From a virus, in IMG/VR virus record IMGVR_UViG_3300047089_000244, positions 64,001-128,000 of that record: a stretch of 64,000 bases of DNA. One strand, given 5' to 3'. The position numbers and the translations under genes were made by a program. Under the pieces are notes generated by a model, which saw nothing but the letters and a program-made list of their open reading frames with translations, did not search any database and was not told the DNA's origin. Shown here piece by piece: positions 5,076 through 62,106 of the stretch (position 1 is its first letter; each line of letters starts with the position of its first letter).

Positions 5076-7604
5076 CTACGTCTTCCCTGCCTCTGCAACC
5101 TGTGCCCAGACTTCCGGTGTGGAGAGATGGGTCTGTTCTGTGGCGTGCTGCATGAGGGTCTGTCCGGGCTGTCCTGTGATGCGCTCTCCGGTTTGCGGAT
5201 GCGTGAACCAAGGCGTACGTAAGATCGCGCTCGTCTTGAAGACGCTCGCCATAGCCTGGAAGGGTACCTTGGTCTTTGGCGAGTTGATCGTTTCGTCCCA
5301 TTCTTCGCCCACCTGCTTACGTGCGGGTTCGGTATTCTTCCACCAATCGGGAGCTTGACCATGCCAGTTCTGCTTGTGAAGAACCGCCTCTGCCGCGTTG
5401 ATTGGCTGTTCCTTGGCCTGCCAGTCAATCGAGTCGTACGGTACAGGGTCCAGGACGCGCAATCCTGAGTGATCCTGGTGTGACCCTTCCCCTGTACGCT
5501 TCATGTCCCACATGCCCCACTGGAAGGTCCCTAGCGGGACGTGGCCATACCCTGCGGCGTCACGACCGGCTTGAAGTTCACGCTCGTACTTGAAGTAGTC
5601 CCGAGTGTTCATCTCCTTGTCGTAGTTGTGCCCGAGCACATCCATGATGTGAGTATCGATGGTGGCTAGCTGAGAAGTCGTAGGCTGGAGCAGGAGCCAC
5701 GCGAATGAGGCCACCTTAGGACCGACGCCAGAGACACCTAGCTGGAGCACAGCAGCGCGGAAGTGATGTCCACTGCCGTCATGTTCATGTACATCTTCGA
5801 GCGCGGCCTTGAGGAGTGTATCAACGTGTGTAGAGATTTGAGCGATAGCCTTAAGATGTGTTCCCATGAATGCGCCATAGCGATCAAGTTTCTGTTGTTT
5901 GAGTTGCGGTTCGAGCGGGAAGAGGGTGTCTTCGCCAGTCGGCGTCTTAGCAGCCGCCGTGAAGAGATTGGGCTGGTCATACGCCTTGTGCTCGGCGAGG
6001 AAGGTTTCGATCTTCTTAGTCAGTGCAGCGTTGGCCTCTTTTTCGACTTCAAAGTGGTTCATGCGACTCTCCTCGGGCAGTTTCTCGTCTGCCTCCATGA
6101 TCCGCTCCTGCTCTTCCTGCTCCCAGTCAAATAGCTCGTGCTGTGCTCGCTCTTTGGCAGCCTCCCAACCGCCCTGTGGATTGCGATCGTAGATCATGCG
6201 CTCGAATTGGGGTACGAGCTTGAAGTAGGGCCTGTGCGAGAAGCGGGCGTTCTCGCCGAAGTTCTTGACGTTCCAAGCCTGTCGCTTGTTCTCCAGGGAG
6301 TTCCAGTAGACCGATGGATCTGTGGCTCCAGGGGGGACGCCAGAGATGTCCTGGTAGTGGATCGTGTTCCAGCGCAGATCCTTGCGCGGGCTCAAGAGGA
6401 CCGCTCGGAATGCGTTGACGATGGCAAGCTTCATACGTTCGTAGTCTGGCTCGTTCTCGCCAGTCTTGAGCTTCGCCCACTCAGTATCAATCAGAGAAGC
6501 GTTAGTAATCGTGTCCTGGGCCTGGAGAGGGTCCCCGTGGTGCAGGTAAGCGTTAGGTTCCATCGGCTGGATACCTGTTTGGTAGTTCGCGTTAGGGTCC
6601 GCGAGCGTCTGATCCACATCCTGGCCAGGAAGAACAGATCCTATTCTGCCGATGTCCATACCAGGTACATAGTTCATGTTGACCGGCATCCCTTGCATTT
6701 CCTGTTCGTGTGGAGCAATATTATCCTTAGGGAGTCCGACAGGTTTCGATGGTTTTATCGCAGGCATAGCTGTTGGAGCTACCGACTGCGAAGGATGGAT
6801 GCCCTGGAAGTTTGGGTGGACTCCTTCTGCTTTCTGCGCAGGCTCATAGAACTGCGGGAATAATGCCACCTTATTAGGTCCAAAGTGACGATAGTGGGCT
6901 GCATAGGCGCTCTGTGCGATGCACTCTGAGAAGAGCGCCTTCTGCGCCTCTGTTGATAAAAGTGGGAAGTGAGCGGCACATGCTTTGTTCTCTCCTTCCC
7001 ATCCGAAATCGCCTCCCGACACTCCGTGTCCAAGAACATCATGGACGATGCGGAAATTCACATTCTGCTCTGGTGTCCATATAGGGTGATCGCAGTTAGC
7101 TGTGGACACAGTATAGTGCTGGCGTTTGTGGATATCATCAGCTTGGTCTTGAGCATTGACATACGGCTCAGGGTCATTCGTTTCCTCAATGTGGAGTTGA
7201 TTGCGCAGGACTTCCGCTCGACGTGTCGAGTCGTCGGCAAGGGCCTTGAACGCCGCTGCGGCCTTCGGATCGTAGACAGGAGCCTTGGCATAGGCTTCAG
7301 CGATAGGCTGTAGCTGGTCAGACCAATCAGCCTTCCACATACCAATGCGTTCCATTGCTGCGGTGCGCATGTGGTTCTTGCGCTCGATGGCGAGCAAGAG
7401 GTTGCGGACTGCCATTCCCTCGTCCGGCCCGGTCTTCTCGATCTCGTCGCCGTAGGGGTTCTTGGCGGAGGCTACATAGCAGTCCTCCTTTTTGTCGAAC
7501 TTGACCCTCTTGACGCTCCAGCCGGAATCGCCAATGCGTGTGTAGAGGTCCCGAAGGTTGTGGCTATAGACCAGGGAAGAAGCGGTGACGTTTAGACGCG
7601 GCAT
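5076..7604 (-). CDS. multidomain protein: putative metal-binding (HDxxGH) domain plus C-terminal HhH-GPD DNA glycosylase/AP lyase (Ogg2-like)
   Basis: FRIVHDVLGH..GE..A...H...ALFSE; GVSGVGPKVASF (HhH with Lys) ...TIDTHIM...YFKYE...FQWGMWD. Start placed at ATG 7604 after the ATAATAAGTG motif. Confidence 0.75.
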   Translation of the reverse strand: MPRLNVTASSLVYSHNLRDLYTRIGDSGWSVKRVKFDKKEDCYVASAKNPYGDEIEKTGPDEGMAVRNLLLAIERKNHMRTAAMERIGMWKADWSDQLQPIAEAYAKAPVYDPKAAAAFKALADDSTRRAEVLRNQLHIEETNDPEPYVNAQDQADDIHKRQHYTVSTANCDHPIWTPEQNVNFRIVHDVLGHGVSGGDFGWEGENKACAAHFPLLSTEAQKALFSECIAQSAYAAHYRHFGPNKVALFPQFYEPAQKAEGVHPNFQGIHPSQSVAPTAMPAIKPSKPVGLPKDNIAPHEQEMQGMPVNMNYVPGMDIGRIGSVLPGQDVDQTLADPNANYQTGIQPMEPNAYLHHGDPLQAQDTITNASLIDTEWAKLKTGENEPDYERMKLAIVNAFRAVLLSPRKDLRWNTIHYQDISGVPPGATDPSVYWNSLENKRQAWNVKNFGENARFSHRPYFKLVPQFERMIYDRNPQGGWEAAKERAQHELFDWEQEEQERIMEADEKLPEESRMNHFEVEKEANAALTKKIETFLAEHKAYDQPNLFTAAAKTPTGEDTLFPLEPQLKQQKLDRYGAFMGTHLKAIAQISTHVDTLLKAALEDVHEHDGSGHHFRAAVLQLGVSGVGPKVASFAWLLLQPTTSQLATIDTHIMDVLGHNYDKEMNTRDYFKYERELQAGRDAAGYGHVPLGTFQWGMWDMKRTGEGSHQDHSGLRVLDPVPYDSIDWQAKEQPINAAEAVLHKQNWHGQAPDWWKNTEPARKQVGEEWDETINSPKTKVPFQAMASVFKTSAILRTPWFTHPQTGERITGQPGQTLMQHATEQTHLSTPEVWAQVAEAGKT

Positions 7605-7682
7605 CACTTATTATCCTACCAGAAGCGCCTAGATAGAACCTCACCGTGTACATGGCGATCTGGGCATAAGCCCGAAGATCCA

Positions 7683-61300: not shown

Positions 61301-62106
61301 TCACGTCCGCGCACATTGACATACCCAACGGCCATCGGGCCGTTATGATCGGGAGCGATCTGAGCCTCTTCTGCCATCTGTTCGTGGTCGTCTACGGGTG
61401 AGACTTTGAACTCGCCGTTGCCGAAGATGAACTTATACTCATGCTCAACAGGTTCCTCCATCGAGAGATTGAGGTCGTCTATCACCGGGTCGTGGAAATC
61501 GCGTTGATTGAATTCCTCTTCTGCCTGCGGGCCTTCGCCAGGATACGCGTCGGAACCCGATCCACCGGAGTCGGCTTGCTTCAGAATCTTACCCTCTAGA
61601 GCGGCATTAGCACGTTCGGCAAATAACTGTGATCGCTGAGTGATGTTTGGCGACTGTTCTAGGTCTTCCCAGTCACGTTTGTCCTGTCCTGGTTGAGGAT
61701 CACTCTGAATGCGGAAGTCGCGATAGAGAGGATTGGTTGCATGCGTGTAGACAATTGGGCCTGGCCTATGGCGCATCTGTTCAGGCTCATACTCATAGGG
61801 CTCATCCTCCGCGTCTTGTGGGCGCGGCGTACCTTTGACAGGAGTGAAAGCATACTGGTCGCCTGTGAGATCCACGACGTAATTCCTATCTGGGCTCACC
61901 CAGAAGAAGTGACCTTCCTTCTGGCCAATATGTCCGCCGCCGAGCTTGCTCTGAAGCCACTTAGATGTAACGTAACAATGTCCAGCGCTCGGCTGTGGAT
62001 GACCGCGAGAGTCCTCGGGGCGTGTCTCATCTGACCATGCGTGTTCTGCTGCGCGGCGTAGCTCGTGCAGTTTCTCTTGTGTGATCGTGTCTGGATCAAA
62101 TCCCAT
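58399..62106 (-). CDS. 1235-aa modular protein: papain/YunG-like domain, C2H2 finger, PcfJ-like domain, C-terminal CCA-adding tRNA nucleotidyltransferase with HD domain
   Basis: GHCYVTS..HFFW..VDLT.DQY; CPYC..H..H; REGDMMHHCW..SLRD; VYVVGGAVRD.LL...PKDID, DLQRRDFT.N, EDP.R..RA, HH..GEHS, LLHDTGK. Confidence 0.85.
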   Translation of the reverse strand: MGFDPDTITQEKLHELRRAAEHAWSDETRPEDSRGHPQPSAGHCYVTSKWLQSKLGGGHIGQKEGHFFWVSPDRNYVVDLTGDQYAFTPVKGTPRPQDAEDEPYEYEPEQMRHRPGPIVYTHATNPLYRDFRIQSDPQPGQDKRDWEDLEQSPNITQRSQLFAERANAALEGKILKQADSGGSGSDAYPGEGPQAEEEFNQRDFHDPVIDDLNLSMEEPVEHEYKFIFGNGEFKVSPVDDHEQMAEEAQIAPDHNGPMAVGYVNVRGRDALWSVESNIGLRGLVKMMKDYSKQVGWKWGGLVDSSGQPIHDDFGAKKSYWYGWREGKLKLSSRPFWGNHDEIEIVGRTASFNRPPNPFALPGLIEWADDFGYRIAEYPGGTDMNDRIKNKEWPTTYDKGDPEAEPGKAFDGEPQGQLTCPYCNETLPDFKAYVMHTQDHQDPKAAPIDDGHFPTIEDKDEPLPLRPRNVTPTAIPVMGAFVSSDKWHFGRMTVPQQQRFKTKLEEVHGPEQTEILHQFPDGWTIRHLPSWNEVGREGDMMHHCWGGMGTSEDQNDMVYDPSSQHVMGADMNLSLRDPNNWPHASFSYDPRGKHATEIGAHGGQYITEDDLPEDVSHLNRVKEFVQAQRDGTSQLPEHLQPIGPGWRNEAGWHFEAAGGKEGKDLLQAPIPFIYDIEKDYITVGHPGMRTPDIMGQFTPGGIVEGYYEPKGKMVINTTTTIPFSTYHMMQLWYYSHPGLEITSLEMESQTGEKHKVASADVGTYIRSITAADGAAWTASQALKEAGGKVYVVGGAVRDALLQKEPKDIDLMVSGIPPEDVNNILEHLPGRVDLTGKRFGVYRYHTKGQEVEIALPRTDTYESGGTRGQGKITVDHHLPIEKDLQRRDFTANSMAVDLDSSGRLLDPYGGARDIESHTLRTTHPGSFDEDPTRLVRALTMHSRHGLVPDEQTRKEMEEYAHRLDQESPDALKQQLEKLLTSANPAGAFRLAQETGVLKHLFPELANNFDYDQKNPHHNYSLGEHSLNVFDNVSRASKDPDLRLAALLHDTGKPASAWIDPATGVTHYYAGMLEGVPVGADHAKVGADMTEARLRQTFNYPVTKIRNIHNLISQHMFPQFSSAKGARKFLNKTGEAADDLLTLRAADNEGKGIDTSYKTPVDTMRELVEQSRQSGAPTTQSAISVNGNDLLALGLKPGPQVGTILRQLTNDVVADPTLNEKSALLQRAQEYINAQPEV

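Follow-up and report, generated by a model that had tools for sequence, protein, structure and literature searches.

Polyvalent phage proteins are known mainly from comparative genomics, and they pose the question of how their many domains are arranged, transported and set free. In the virus record IMGVR_UViG_3300047089_000244, six large open reading frames (ORFs; P0001 to P0006) are dispersed over the minus strand of the 64,000-nucleotide stretch analysed here (the window; genome bases 64001-128000). In the original prediction, the six ORFs were described as one family of late cargo polyproteins, in which unrelated RNA-repair and anti-defence domains are separated by two short junction motifs, W-x-F and [RK]-x-A, proposed to serve as cleavage or packaging tags. 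Here we describe four of the six as strings of cassettes, and the two motifs as the halves of one module terminator.

The ends of the cassettes

The eight W-x-F pentapeptides listed in the original prediction were all confirmed to the exact nucleotide. Counts were made on a proteome of 193 genes (45,952 amino acids) obtained by a simple codon-usage call. The pattern W.F[QGE][ASR] occurred eight times in these 193 proteins, three times in P0002, twice in P0003, once in P0005 and twice in P0006, compared with 0.99 ± 1.0 occurrences expected by shuffling in the whole proteome and 0.12 in the six proteins. Five of the eight sites are not independent, because they end five paralogous copies of a repeat, GKG-HTW, and W and F were invariant at the C-terminal end of all five aligned copies. 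Thus, W-x-F is mainly the C-terminal tail of an undescribed domain of about 100 residues.

A profile of the GKG-HTW domain, searched against 1.84 billion cluster representatives (clusters at 50% identity), matched at least 362 of them. Up to about 20 interspersed copies were detected in giant phage proteins: the 4,942-residue P0007 carries 18 significant copies (27 matched stretches in a remote search), and other giants with the domain have approximately 3,000-4,100 residues. Neither the domain nor most of the remaining giant sequence gave a Pfam match in the ten family members scanned. The W-x-F end is widely kept: among 295 near-complete copies, 237 close with W.[FYW], and the consensus is [DE][DEG]-W-[HNKR]-F-[GSA]-[AKS]-[VTA]-A.

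We modelled residues 1-102 of P0002 with AlphaFold2 (AF2) from a 145-sequence alignment; the single-sequence model of P0002 was unusable (pLDDT 35). The core of the first copy (residues 1-80) was predicted with a pLDDT above 90, while W-x-F (residues 87-89) lay in a tail of lower confidence, and the spacer between the conserved DPRL and W-x-F varied from 5 to 11 residues. A Foldseek search of the core against the PDB gave nothing at E <= 1e-3, and searches of the ESM Atlas by shape and features returned only rows with TM < 0.5 and no named cluster. The best-scoring structure was human phosphohistidine phosphatase PHPT1, of the PHPT1/Janus fold (2nmm; Z 5.0; 70 residues superposed with an rmsd of 2.6), ahead of a second match at Z 3.5, and no match was convincing. 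The conserved Lys and His of GKG-HTW seem to lie in roughly corresponding elements of PHPT1, which is a weak lead. Designed beta-trefoils ('Symfoil'), matched by the profile among PDB sequences, were rejected as a repeat artefact, because a short F-x-I-x-P-D-G-x-V hairpin had been summed over three repeats.

The motif was also analysed in 149 homologous proteins. W.F occurred 721 times in these, compared with 154 ± 11 expected (z ~50), and the reversed control was far lower. Outside the recognised GKG-HTW copies, homologues held 148 further sites of W.F[GSAQE][ASKGR], compared with 7.7 ± 2.4 expected. W-x-F also followed Zn ribbons and the PcfJ-like module, and stood near an N-terminus ahead of an ART domain. 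Its flanks were rich in P, D, E and G and belonged to linkers of variable length, and successive sites were spaced with a median of 123 residues and a mode of approximately 105-125.

The thirteen [RK]-x-A examples of the original prediction were likewise all present. [RK][VITL]A occurred 22 times in the six proteins, compared with 8.1 ± 2.7 expected, and 98 times in the rest of the proteome, compared with about 95. In the 149 homologous proteins, it occurred 436 times against 185 ± 12 expected (z ~20), with the reversed control far lower or depleted.

The two motifs were found in joined form. Among the homologues, [KRH][VITL]A started at +4 or +5 from the W of W-x-F in 30 of 232 cases, compared with 0.8 expected per offset, as in WTFSKVA, WNFGKVA and WNFQARVA; the version in P0007 was W-x-L-S-R-T-A. 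They also replaced each other: KTA, RIA or WSFEA occupied the same position ahead of the 2H module among relatives, and W-R-I-A alternated with W-H-I-G ahead of the ART-like module. At the start of internal GKG-HTW copies, either motif was present within the 25 upstream residues in 56% of cases, compared with 17% at random positions. These results show that W-x-F and [RK]-x-A belong together as the two parts of a single terminator, [DE]x-W-x-[FIL]-[GSQ]-[ASK]-[KR]-[VTI]-A, in which cassettes tend to end.

Cassettes are shuffled between such ends. The modules of P0002 and P0003 reappeared in other orders across many relatives, and the junction after the second GKG-HTW copy of P0002, WxF[QS][AS]RVA-MPVGEDYW, was kept among homologues. 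T-K-[LV]-A, which follows a hairpin-like conserved segment ahead of the CCA module, was conserved in the rows of P0006 homologues inspected (part of the alignment). In five P0006 homologues, extra modules were inserted exactly after TKLA, each ending in W-x-F-x-x-A or S-K-L-A. The claim that the motifs mark domain boundaries held: they coincide with module boundaries that were defined independently, and hundreds of relatives keep them.

Modules, tails and neighbouring genes

All six ORFs were present in the window at the positions given in the original prediction, two of them with alternative upstream GTG or TTG starts (at 7607 and 55143); their composition is given in Table 1. Their description as multidomain ('polyvalent') phage proteins was borne out by Pfam and module matches in P0003 and P0006. 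P0003 matched Acb1/2H at residues 78-200 (PF23474, 30.7 bits; cut-off 27), with the H-x-T/S motifs HITML and HMTIA present, and cREC at residues 635-730 (PF20274, 65.1 bits; cut-off 27). The CCA-adding enzyme of P0006 was recognized by PF01743 (90.2 bits), PF12627 (40 bits), PF01966 (30.5 bits), PF13735 (31.1 bits) and phrog_2244 (E 1e-61), and the same fusion as in P0006 was found in 64 homologues.

Several modules are held in common. GKG-HTW is shared by P0002, where its three copies scored i-E 1e-34 to 1e-41, by P0003, and by a 1,832-residue giant protein of the head module. The PcfJ-like module of about 150 residues is common to P0003 and P0006 (E 5e-12). Scored directly against PF14284, it reached only 15.7 bits (cut-off 25); it aligned to residues 576-646 of the relative P0016, overlapping residues 586-667, which match PcfJ with 49.7 bits. 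The exchange of modules noticed in the original prediction was upheld for GKG-HTW and the PcfJ-like module, and the ART-like modules of P0002 and P0003 were only weakly related (E 6e-5). That of P0002 (residues 208-410) gave a weak PARP match (E 0.087, residues 208-412). ART-like sequence also gave a match to phrog_13493 (E 6e-4) and shows a YHGT motif. The Pol-beta match of P0005 was weak (E 0.13), and a GS..DxD signature was visible.

A family of six proteins was not recovered. P0001 lacks W-x-F and shares with the family only its N-terminal module (phrog_3170), which is also fused in the GKG-HTW protein P0114. P0004 has no W-x-F site and no module in common with the motif family, and is not a member. 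P0005 and P0006 carry W-x-F without GKG-HTW, and P0002 and P0003 carry both; these four are polyvalent proteins built as cassette strings. Searched by tblastn against 50,697 phage genomes, P0002 gave no match and P0003 a single cREC region; megablast with the P0006 gene gave no match.

P0006 has a further feature at its N-terminus, where residues 13-107 (window 61786-62070) matched the YunG family (28.2 bits; cut-off 27). This domain shows a Cys..His..Asp pattern (GHCYVTS, GHFFWV, VVDLTGD) with a papain- or transglutaminase-like look, and is a possible built-in peptidase.

Table 1. Positions and composition of the features discussed, in window or genome coordinates
Feature	Coordinates	Frame	Strand	Description
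P0001	5076..7607	window	minus	843 aa; no W-x-F; N-terminal module phrog_3170; weak HhH-GPD-like C-terminus
P0002	15897..17534	window	minus	545 aa; GKG-HTW, GKG-HTW, ART-like, GKG-HTW, tail A
P0002 GKG-HTW copy 1	17262..17534	window	minus	aa 1-91; end WRFQS
P0002 GKG-HTW copy 2	16917..17258	window	minus	aa 93-206; end WSFQA, then RVA
P0002 GKG-HTW copy 3	15999..16304	window	minus	aa 411-512; end WDFGS
Tail A	15900..15998	window	minus	extreme C-terminus of P0002; TEPMEEEPSSVSRGEDGG..VQTANDFAGSL
Free-standing cREC protein	35138..35509	window	minus	paralogue of P0003 cREC module
BCS1-like AAA+ ATPase	36728..37987	window	minus	downstream of P0003
P0003	38259..42431	window	minus	1390 aa; 62-aa N-terminal leader, 2H/Acb1, ART-like, Zn module, GKG-HTW, cREC, PcfJ-like, second ART-like candidate, GKG-HTW, Zn module and tail B
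P0003 GKG-HTW copy A	40548..40943	window	minus	aa 497-628; end WDFQS-RLA, directly before cREC
P0003 GKG-HTW copy B	38871..39176	window	minus	aa 1086-1187; end WHFGA
Tail B	38262-38400	window	minus	C-terminus of P0003; ..DEDEHxDNLEG..EIRKKRKEREDLELV
Tail collar-domain protein	42441..43514	window	minus	immediately upstream of P0003
P0004	53755..55143	window	minus	462 aa; SWIM zinc finger, Pro-rich linker, C-terminal module
P0005	55562..57250	window	minus	562 aa; Pol-beta-type nucleotidyltransferase-like N-terminus, AKIA, Zn module, SRTA, module ending WNFQA, C-terminal module
P0006	58399..62106	window	minus	1235 aa; YunG-like, small modules, C2H2 finger, WHFGR, PcfJ-like, WHFEA, module ending HKVA, class II CCA-adding enzyme with HD
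Major capsid protein	42922-44040	genome		
839-aa protein	44864-47383	genome		head-maturation-protease domain; phrog_18299, E 2e-21
1,832-aa head-module giant	49420-54918	genome		
Portal	132816-135401	genome		
g160-g162	135454-138446	genome		three genes between portal and terminase
Large terminase (TerL)	138483-140615	genome		

Two C-terminal tails are conserved far better than the modules preceding them. Tail A, which closes P0002, has the consensus TEPMEEEPS..VQTxNDFAGSL (stop) and was near-invariant in 17 cluster representatives (133-1,171 residues) with differing upstream modules. Tail B of P0003, likewise near-invariant, was present on 11 representatives and, in relatives, overlaps the start of the AAA+ gene. 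Both tails look like address tags. A predicted complex of the major capsid protein (MCP) with a 46-residue peptide spanning W-x-F and tail A scored 0.00, without controls, and speaks neither for nor against binding.

The order of the collar-domain gene, the P0003-type gene and the BCS1-like AAA+ ATPase gene (window 36728-43514) is conserved in related phages, and the synteny of the free cREC gene, a few genes downstream, is also conserved. A collar-domain gene also stands directly ahead of that for the giant P0007. The polyvalent genes lie in one strand block with TerL, portal and tail-fibre-like genes. Two collagen-like genes of tail-fibre type (window 45585-46655 and 43549-44037, minus strand) are interleaved with them on the same strand, which is the only positional hint of block expression with structural genes; a scan for extended -10 promoters (TGnTAnAAT) gave no pattern timing the polyvalent genes.

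Head assembly and the role of the motifs

The genome is a single contig of 169,966 bp (GC content 51.6%) whose termini overlap by 127 bp, indicating a circular assembly, and the record was graded complete by CheckV. It encodes a tail sheath, a baseplate wedge protein and a DnaE-type polymerase. Its MCP showed approximately 54% identity to those of Mycobacterium cluster C (Bxz1/I3) phages, Rhodococcus phage Finch and Gordonia phage Stormageddon, and more than 1,100 related MCP clusters were found in metagenomes, on contigs of up to 177 kb. This kinship and abundance point to an abundant uncultured lineage of actinobacteriophage-like myoviruses, of which the genome is a complete member of about 170 kb, related to the Bxz1/I3 type.

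A prohead protease gene, as called for in the original prediction, was found. Its product is an 839-residue protein with the protease domain at residues 1-270, and it shows the His and G-x-S-x-G signatures that mark prohead proteases of the HK97 family. We compared motif frequencies between gene sets. [RK][VITL]A exceeded expectation in three of them: the four polyvalent proteins (16 sites for 5.4 expected, z 4.4), the portal-terminase block (16 for 6.1, z 4.1) and the head module (17 for 8.0, z 3.3). It was not enriched in tail and baseplate proteins (z -1.6), plus-strand genes (0.5), small minus-strand ORFs (-1.1) or all others (-1.0); P0001 and P0004 together reached only +1.8. The reversed tripeptide was enriched in no gene set. 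W.F[QGE][ASR] was confined to the four polyvalent proteins, and the enrichment of [RK][VITL]A extended to the head module and portal block. The related pattern [KRH][TVI]A fell short of expectation in tail and baseplate proteins (4 found, 13.2 expected) and in small minus-strand ORFs (3 found, 10.3 expected), while the reversed tripeptide was not depleted in these classes; this depletion may reflect avoidance of a protease site.

The three proteins encoded on the minus strand between portal and terminase, g160-g162, comprise one string of Zn ribbons, one acidic/basic low-complexity protein and one with a Lys-rich tail. Sites of the type K-T-A|D punctuate them, separating Zn ribbons or charged low-complexity segments. 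At the best-conserved site, residue 189 of g160, Ala was conserved in at least 90% of 40 homologues, while at other sites it was a recurrent linker residue. Extra modules begin right after the Ala of such a site (KTA), both in one homologue and at the C-terminus of g160. The three proteins look like scaffold or internal head proteins.

In mycobacteriophage I3, [RK][VITL]A was elevated (z 2.5-2.9) in the head-region proteins gp94, the giant gp102, the protease-scaffold protein gp103 and gp111. Six R-[VTI]-A-[AG] sites were present in gp102, compared with none for the reversed control; a few small or non-head I3 proteins, for example the ParB-like gp88, had similar values. The 1,832-residue head giant, encoded on the minus strand, holds the position of gp102 in I3, and its residues 676-786 form a sixth GKG-HTW copy (E 2e-14), which ends in LFPFGN rather than WxFG. 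No homologue of this giant was found by tblastn against the 50,697 phage genomes.

The MCP itself starts with a variable leader of 5-8 residues followed by the conserved R-Q-[AV]-V-A-S-x-D-Y-E, which was present in 71 of 120 relatives listed, with near variants in others. The I3 counterpart is F-A-K-A-S-D-D-Y, and both versions resemble the H-K-V-A-S-A-D-V ahead of the CCA module of P0006. The conserved MCP segment is a possible cleavage site of a short propeptide. A literature search on MCP processing in Bxz1-type phages gave nothing useful. Apart from the head genes, a remote gene (genome 158343-158843, minus strand) encodes a ClpP-family protease homologue (93 bits), a second candidate protease.

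We take [KR]-[VTI]-A as a putative protease site because it is shared selectively with the protease-scaffold protein, the 1,832-residue head giant and the portal-adjacent proteins. The most likely picture, which we hold tentatively, is that this tripeptide is a prohead-protease site, the polyvalent proteins are head cargo, and W-x-F is a structural or recognition element intrinsic to the cassettes. In this picture, [KR]-[VTI]-A would be the P3-P1 recognition site of the HK97-type prohead serine protease, which would cut after Ala. The polyvalent proteins would enter the prohead, would be trimmed or cut there at these sites, and would then be delivered together with the DNA. W-x-F might act as an exosite or docking strand and would not be the scissile bond. 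The evidence that ties [RK]-x-A to head assembly consists of correlations. The proposed cleavage tag is consistent with our results for [RK]-x-A, which is shared with head proteins as a protease site would be, but not with those for W-x-F.

Several observations weigh against this picture, or limit it. W-x-F was absent from all head-module proteins, occurred in tandem (W.F-x5-W.F) within a single linker of P0006 homologues, and was retained at C-termini: 24 proteins end 0-8 residues past W-x-F, and two checked intact genes inside contigs end in ..WAFGA and ..WNFN at the stop. These features indicate that W-x-F is not a simple cleavage site and, as it is mainly the tail of GKG-HTW, its role as a free-standing tag was abandoned. 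The [RK][VITL]A pattern was defined post hoc, and then confirmed on independent homologues; counts per protein were small, and the best single-protein value (p 0.0025 among 95 proteins) was non-significant after correction. No MuF, portal or metallopeptidase fusion was detected in the family members scanned, and the giant relatives are located among non-structural accessory genes. K-x-A might also represent the final strand of each module and not a protease site.

Other kinds of cleavage were also considered for W-x-F. Nup98-like autoproteolysis at H-F-S was ruled out, because F is mostly followed by Gly or Ala and a conserved nucleophile is lacking. Signal peptidase, sortase and Prp-type sites were set aside, as they match neither the motif nor the likely host clade.

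The main rival to a protease site is that W-x-F and K-x-A form a cap or closing strand on the modules, and that the proteins work uncut in the infected cell. They would then be multi-enzyme machines for RNA repair and anti-defence, with GKG-HTW as spacers or as substrate- or nucleic-acid-binding units, and the motifs would be conserved because modules are shuffled whole. This possibility is real, if somewhat doubtful. It agrees with the invariance of W-x-F in the domain family and its retention at real C-termini, with a modal spacing as for a repeated domain, with the hairpin-like segment ahead of K-x-A at the CCA module, and with the accessory location of the giant relatives; in addition, 2H, KptA-like ART, cREC and CCA form a coherent cytoplasmic RNA-repair set (PMC9503650). 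However, the motif lies in P/D/E-rich linkers of variable length beyond the confident AF2 core, follows non-homologous modules and is able to stand at the N-terminus, and the directional enrichment of K-x-A in head-assembly proteins, with its depletion elsewhere, is left without explanation.

In the opposite direction, these proteins might be true polyproteins of up to about 5,000 residues, composed of dozens of cassettes closed by W-x-F-G-[KS]-[VT]-A, which would be loaded into the prohead, cut after Ala by the HK97-type prohead protease and injected with the DNA as individual enzymes; we consider this unlikely.

A multivalent short linear motif appears more improbable still. Here, acidic-W-x-F and/or tails A and B would bind a common partner (GKG-HTW in trans, the capsid interior or scaffold, or a host factor), and would serve co-assembly, condensation or packaging without proteolysis. 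The tandem W-x-F in one linker and the acidic flanks, which are typical of binding motifs, would fit such a role, as would the occurrence of W-x-F without GKG-HTW in P0005 and P0006 and alongside it in P0002 and P0003, and the persistence of tails A and B on differing cargo. Yet the motif occurs about once per domain in cis, which points to a role within the molecule, and the enrichment of K-x-A among head proteins is again unexplained.

Finally, chance, or an artefact of paralogy and composition, is scarcely credible: although five of the eight W-x-F sites are paralogous repeat ends and the patterns were post hoc, this explanation is already contradicted by the enrichment of both motifs in independent homologues over reversed controls and by the 148 sites outside recognised repeats.

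Relation to known systems and implications

Prohead proteases cut packaged proteins at short motifs in other phages. T4 gp21 cuts internal proteins and Alt, an ART that is cut and injected, at L/I-x-E, and phiKZ gp175 cuts inner-body proteins at S/A/G-x-E. As in these systems, a short motif is common here to scaffold or head proteins and to effectors that are predicted to be packaged. Unlike in T4 and phiKZ, the candidate motif is [KR]-[VTI]-A, with Ala at P1 as at the sites of herpesvirus assemblin, and the candidate substrates are multi-enzyme chains of far greater length, in which internal sites are numerous.

Polyvalent proteins of phages and conjugative elements are described as large proteins that combine 2 to 15 unrelated effector domains, often including ART (Iyer et al. 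2017; PMC5512222). Packaging and injection are predicted for them, and cutting by a peptidase has been proposed. P0003 and P0006 resemble the proteins described there in joining several unrelated effector or enzymatic domains in one phage polypeptide. In contrast to those descriptions, the proteins scanned here showed none of the hallmarks MuF, portal, ParB or zincin-like metallopeptidase, and they are organised around the GKG-HTW repeat, with the terminator at cassette ends. Neither the domain nor the motif turned up in look-ups of parts of PMC5512222 that concerned other features, none of them a search aimed at either. As far as these parts go, the principle is the same, with a new junction domain and motif.

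The repertoire of KptA/Tpt1-like ART, 2H, cREC and CCA is like that of phage RNA-repair modules (PMC9503650), represented here at the Pfam level by Acb1/2H, cREC and PolyA_pol/HD. Those enzymes mostly have genes of their own that lie next to one another, and are occasionally fused, as in Nudix-cREC (PMC9503650), whereas here single proteins join them, with GKG-HTW domains set in between. Tail A also resembles the cargo-targeting peptides of encapsulins, which have a GSL core (PMC7925596), in that ..DFAGSL stands at the extreme C-terminus of diverse cargo, and the shell of this virus has the HK97 fold. It is a resemblance only and, unlike those peptides, tail A has no basic residues after GSL.

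The analysis adds an undescribed domain family, GKG-HTW, with at least 362 clusters at 50% identity, as a recurrent spacer in polyvalent proteins, and a conserved cassette terminator that marks the points at which modules are swapped and inserted. It also adds two highly conserved C-terminal tails on varied cargo, and a specific candidate recognition site, [KR]-[VTI]-A, for the prohead protease of the Bxz1-type clade. If processing at this site is true, it would mean polyprotein-style delivery of effectors in a tailed phage, and would provide a rule for dividing 'dark' giant phage proteins of thousands of residues into functional units. If, further, the proteins are cleaved polyproteins, a strategy like that of RNA viruses would exist in a tailed double-stranded DNA phage and would be widespread in large actinobacterial phages.

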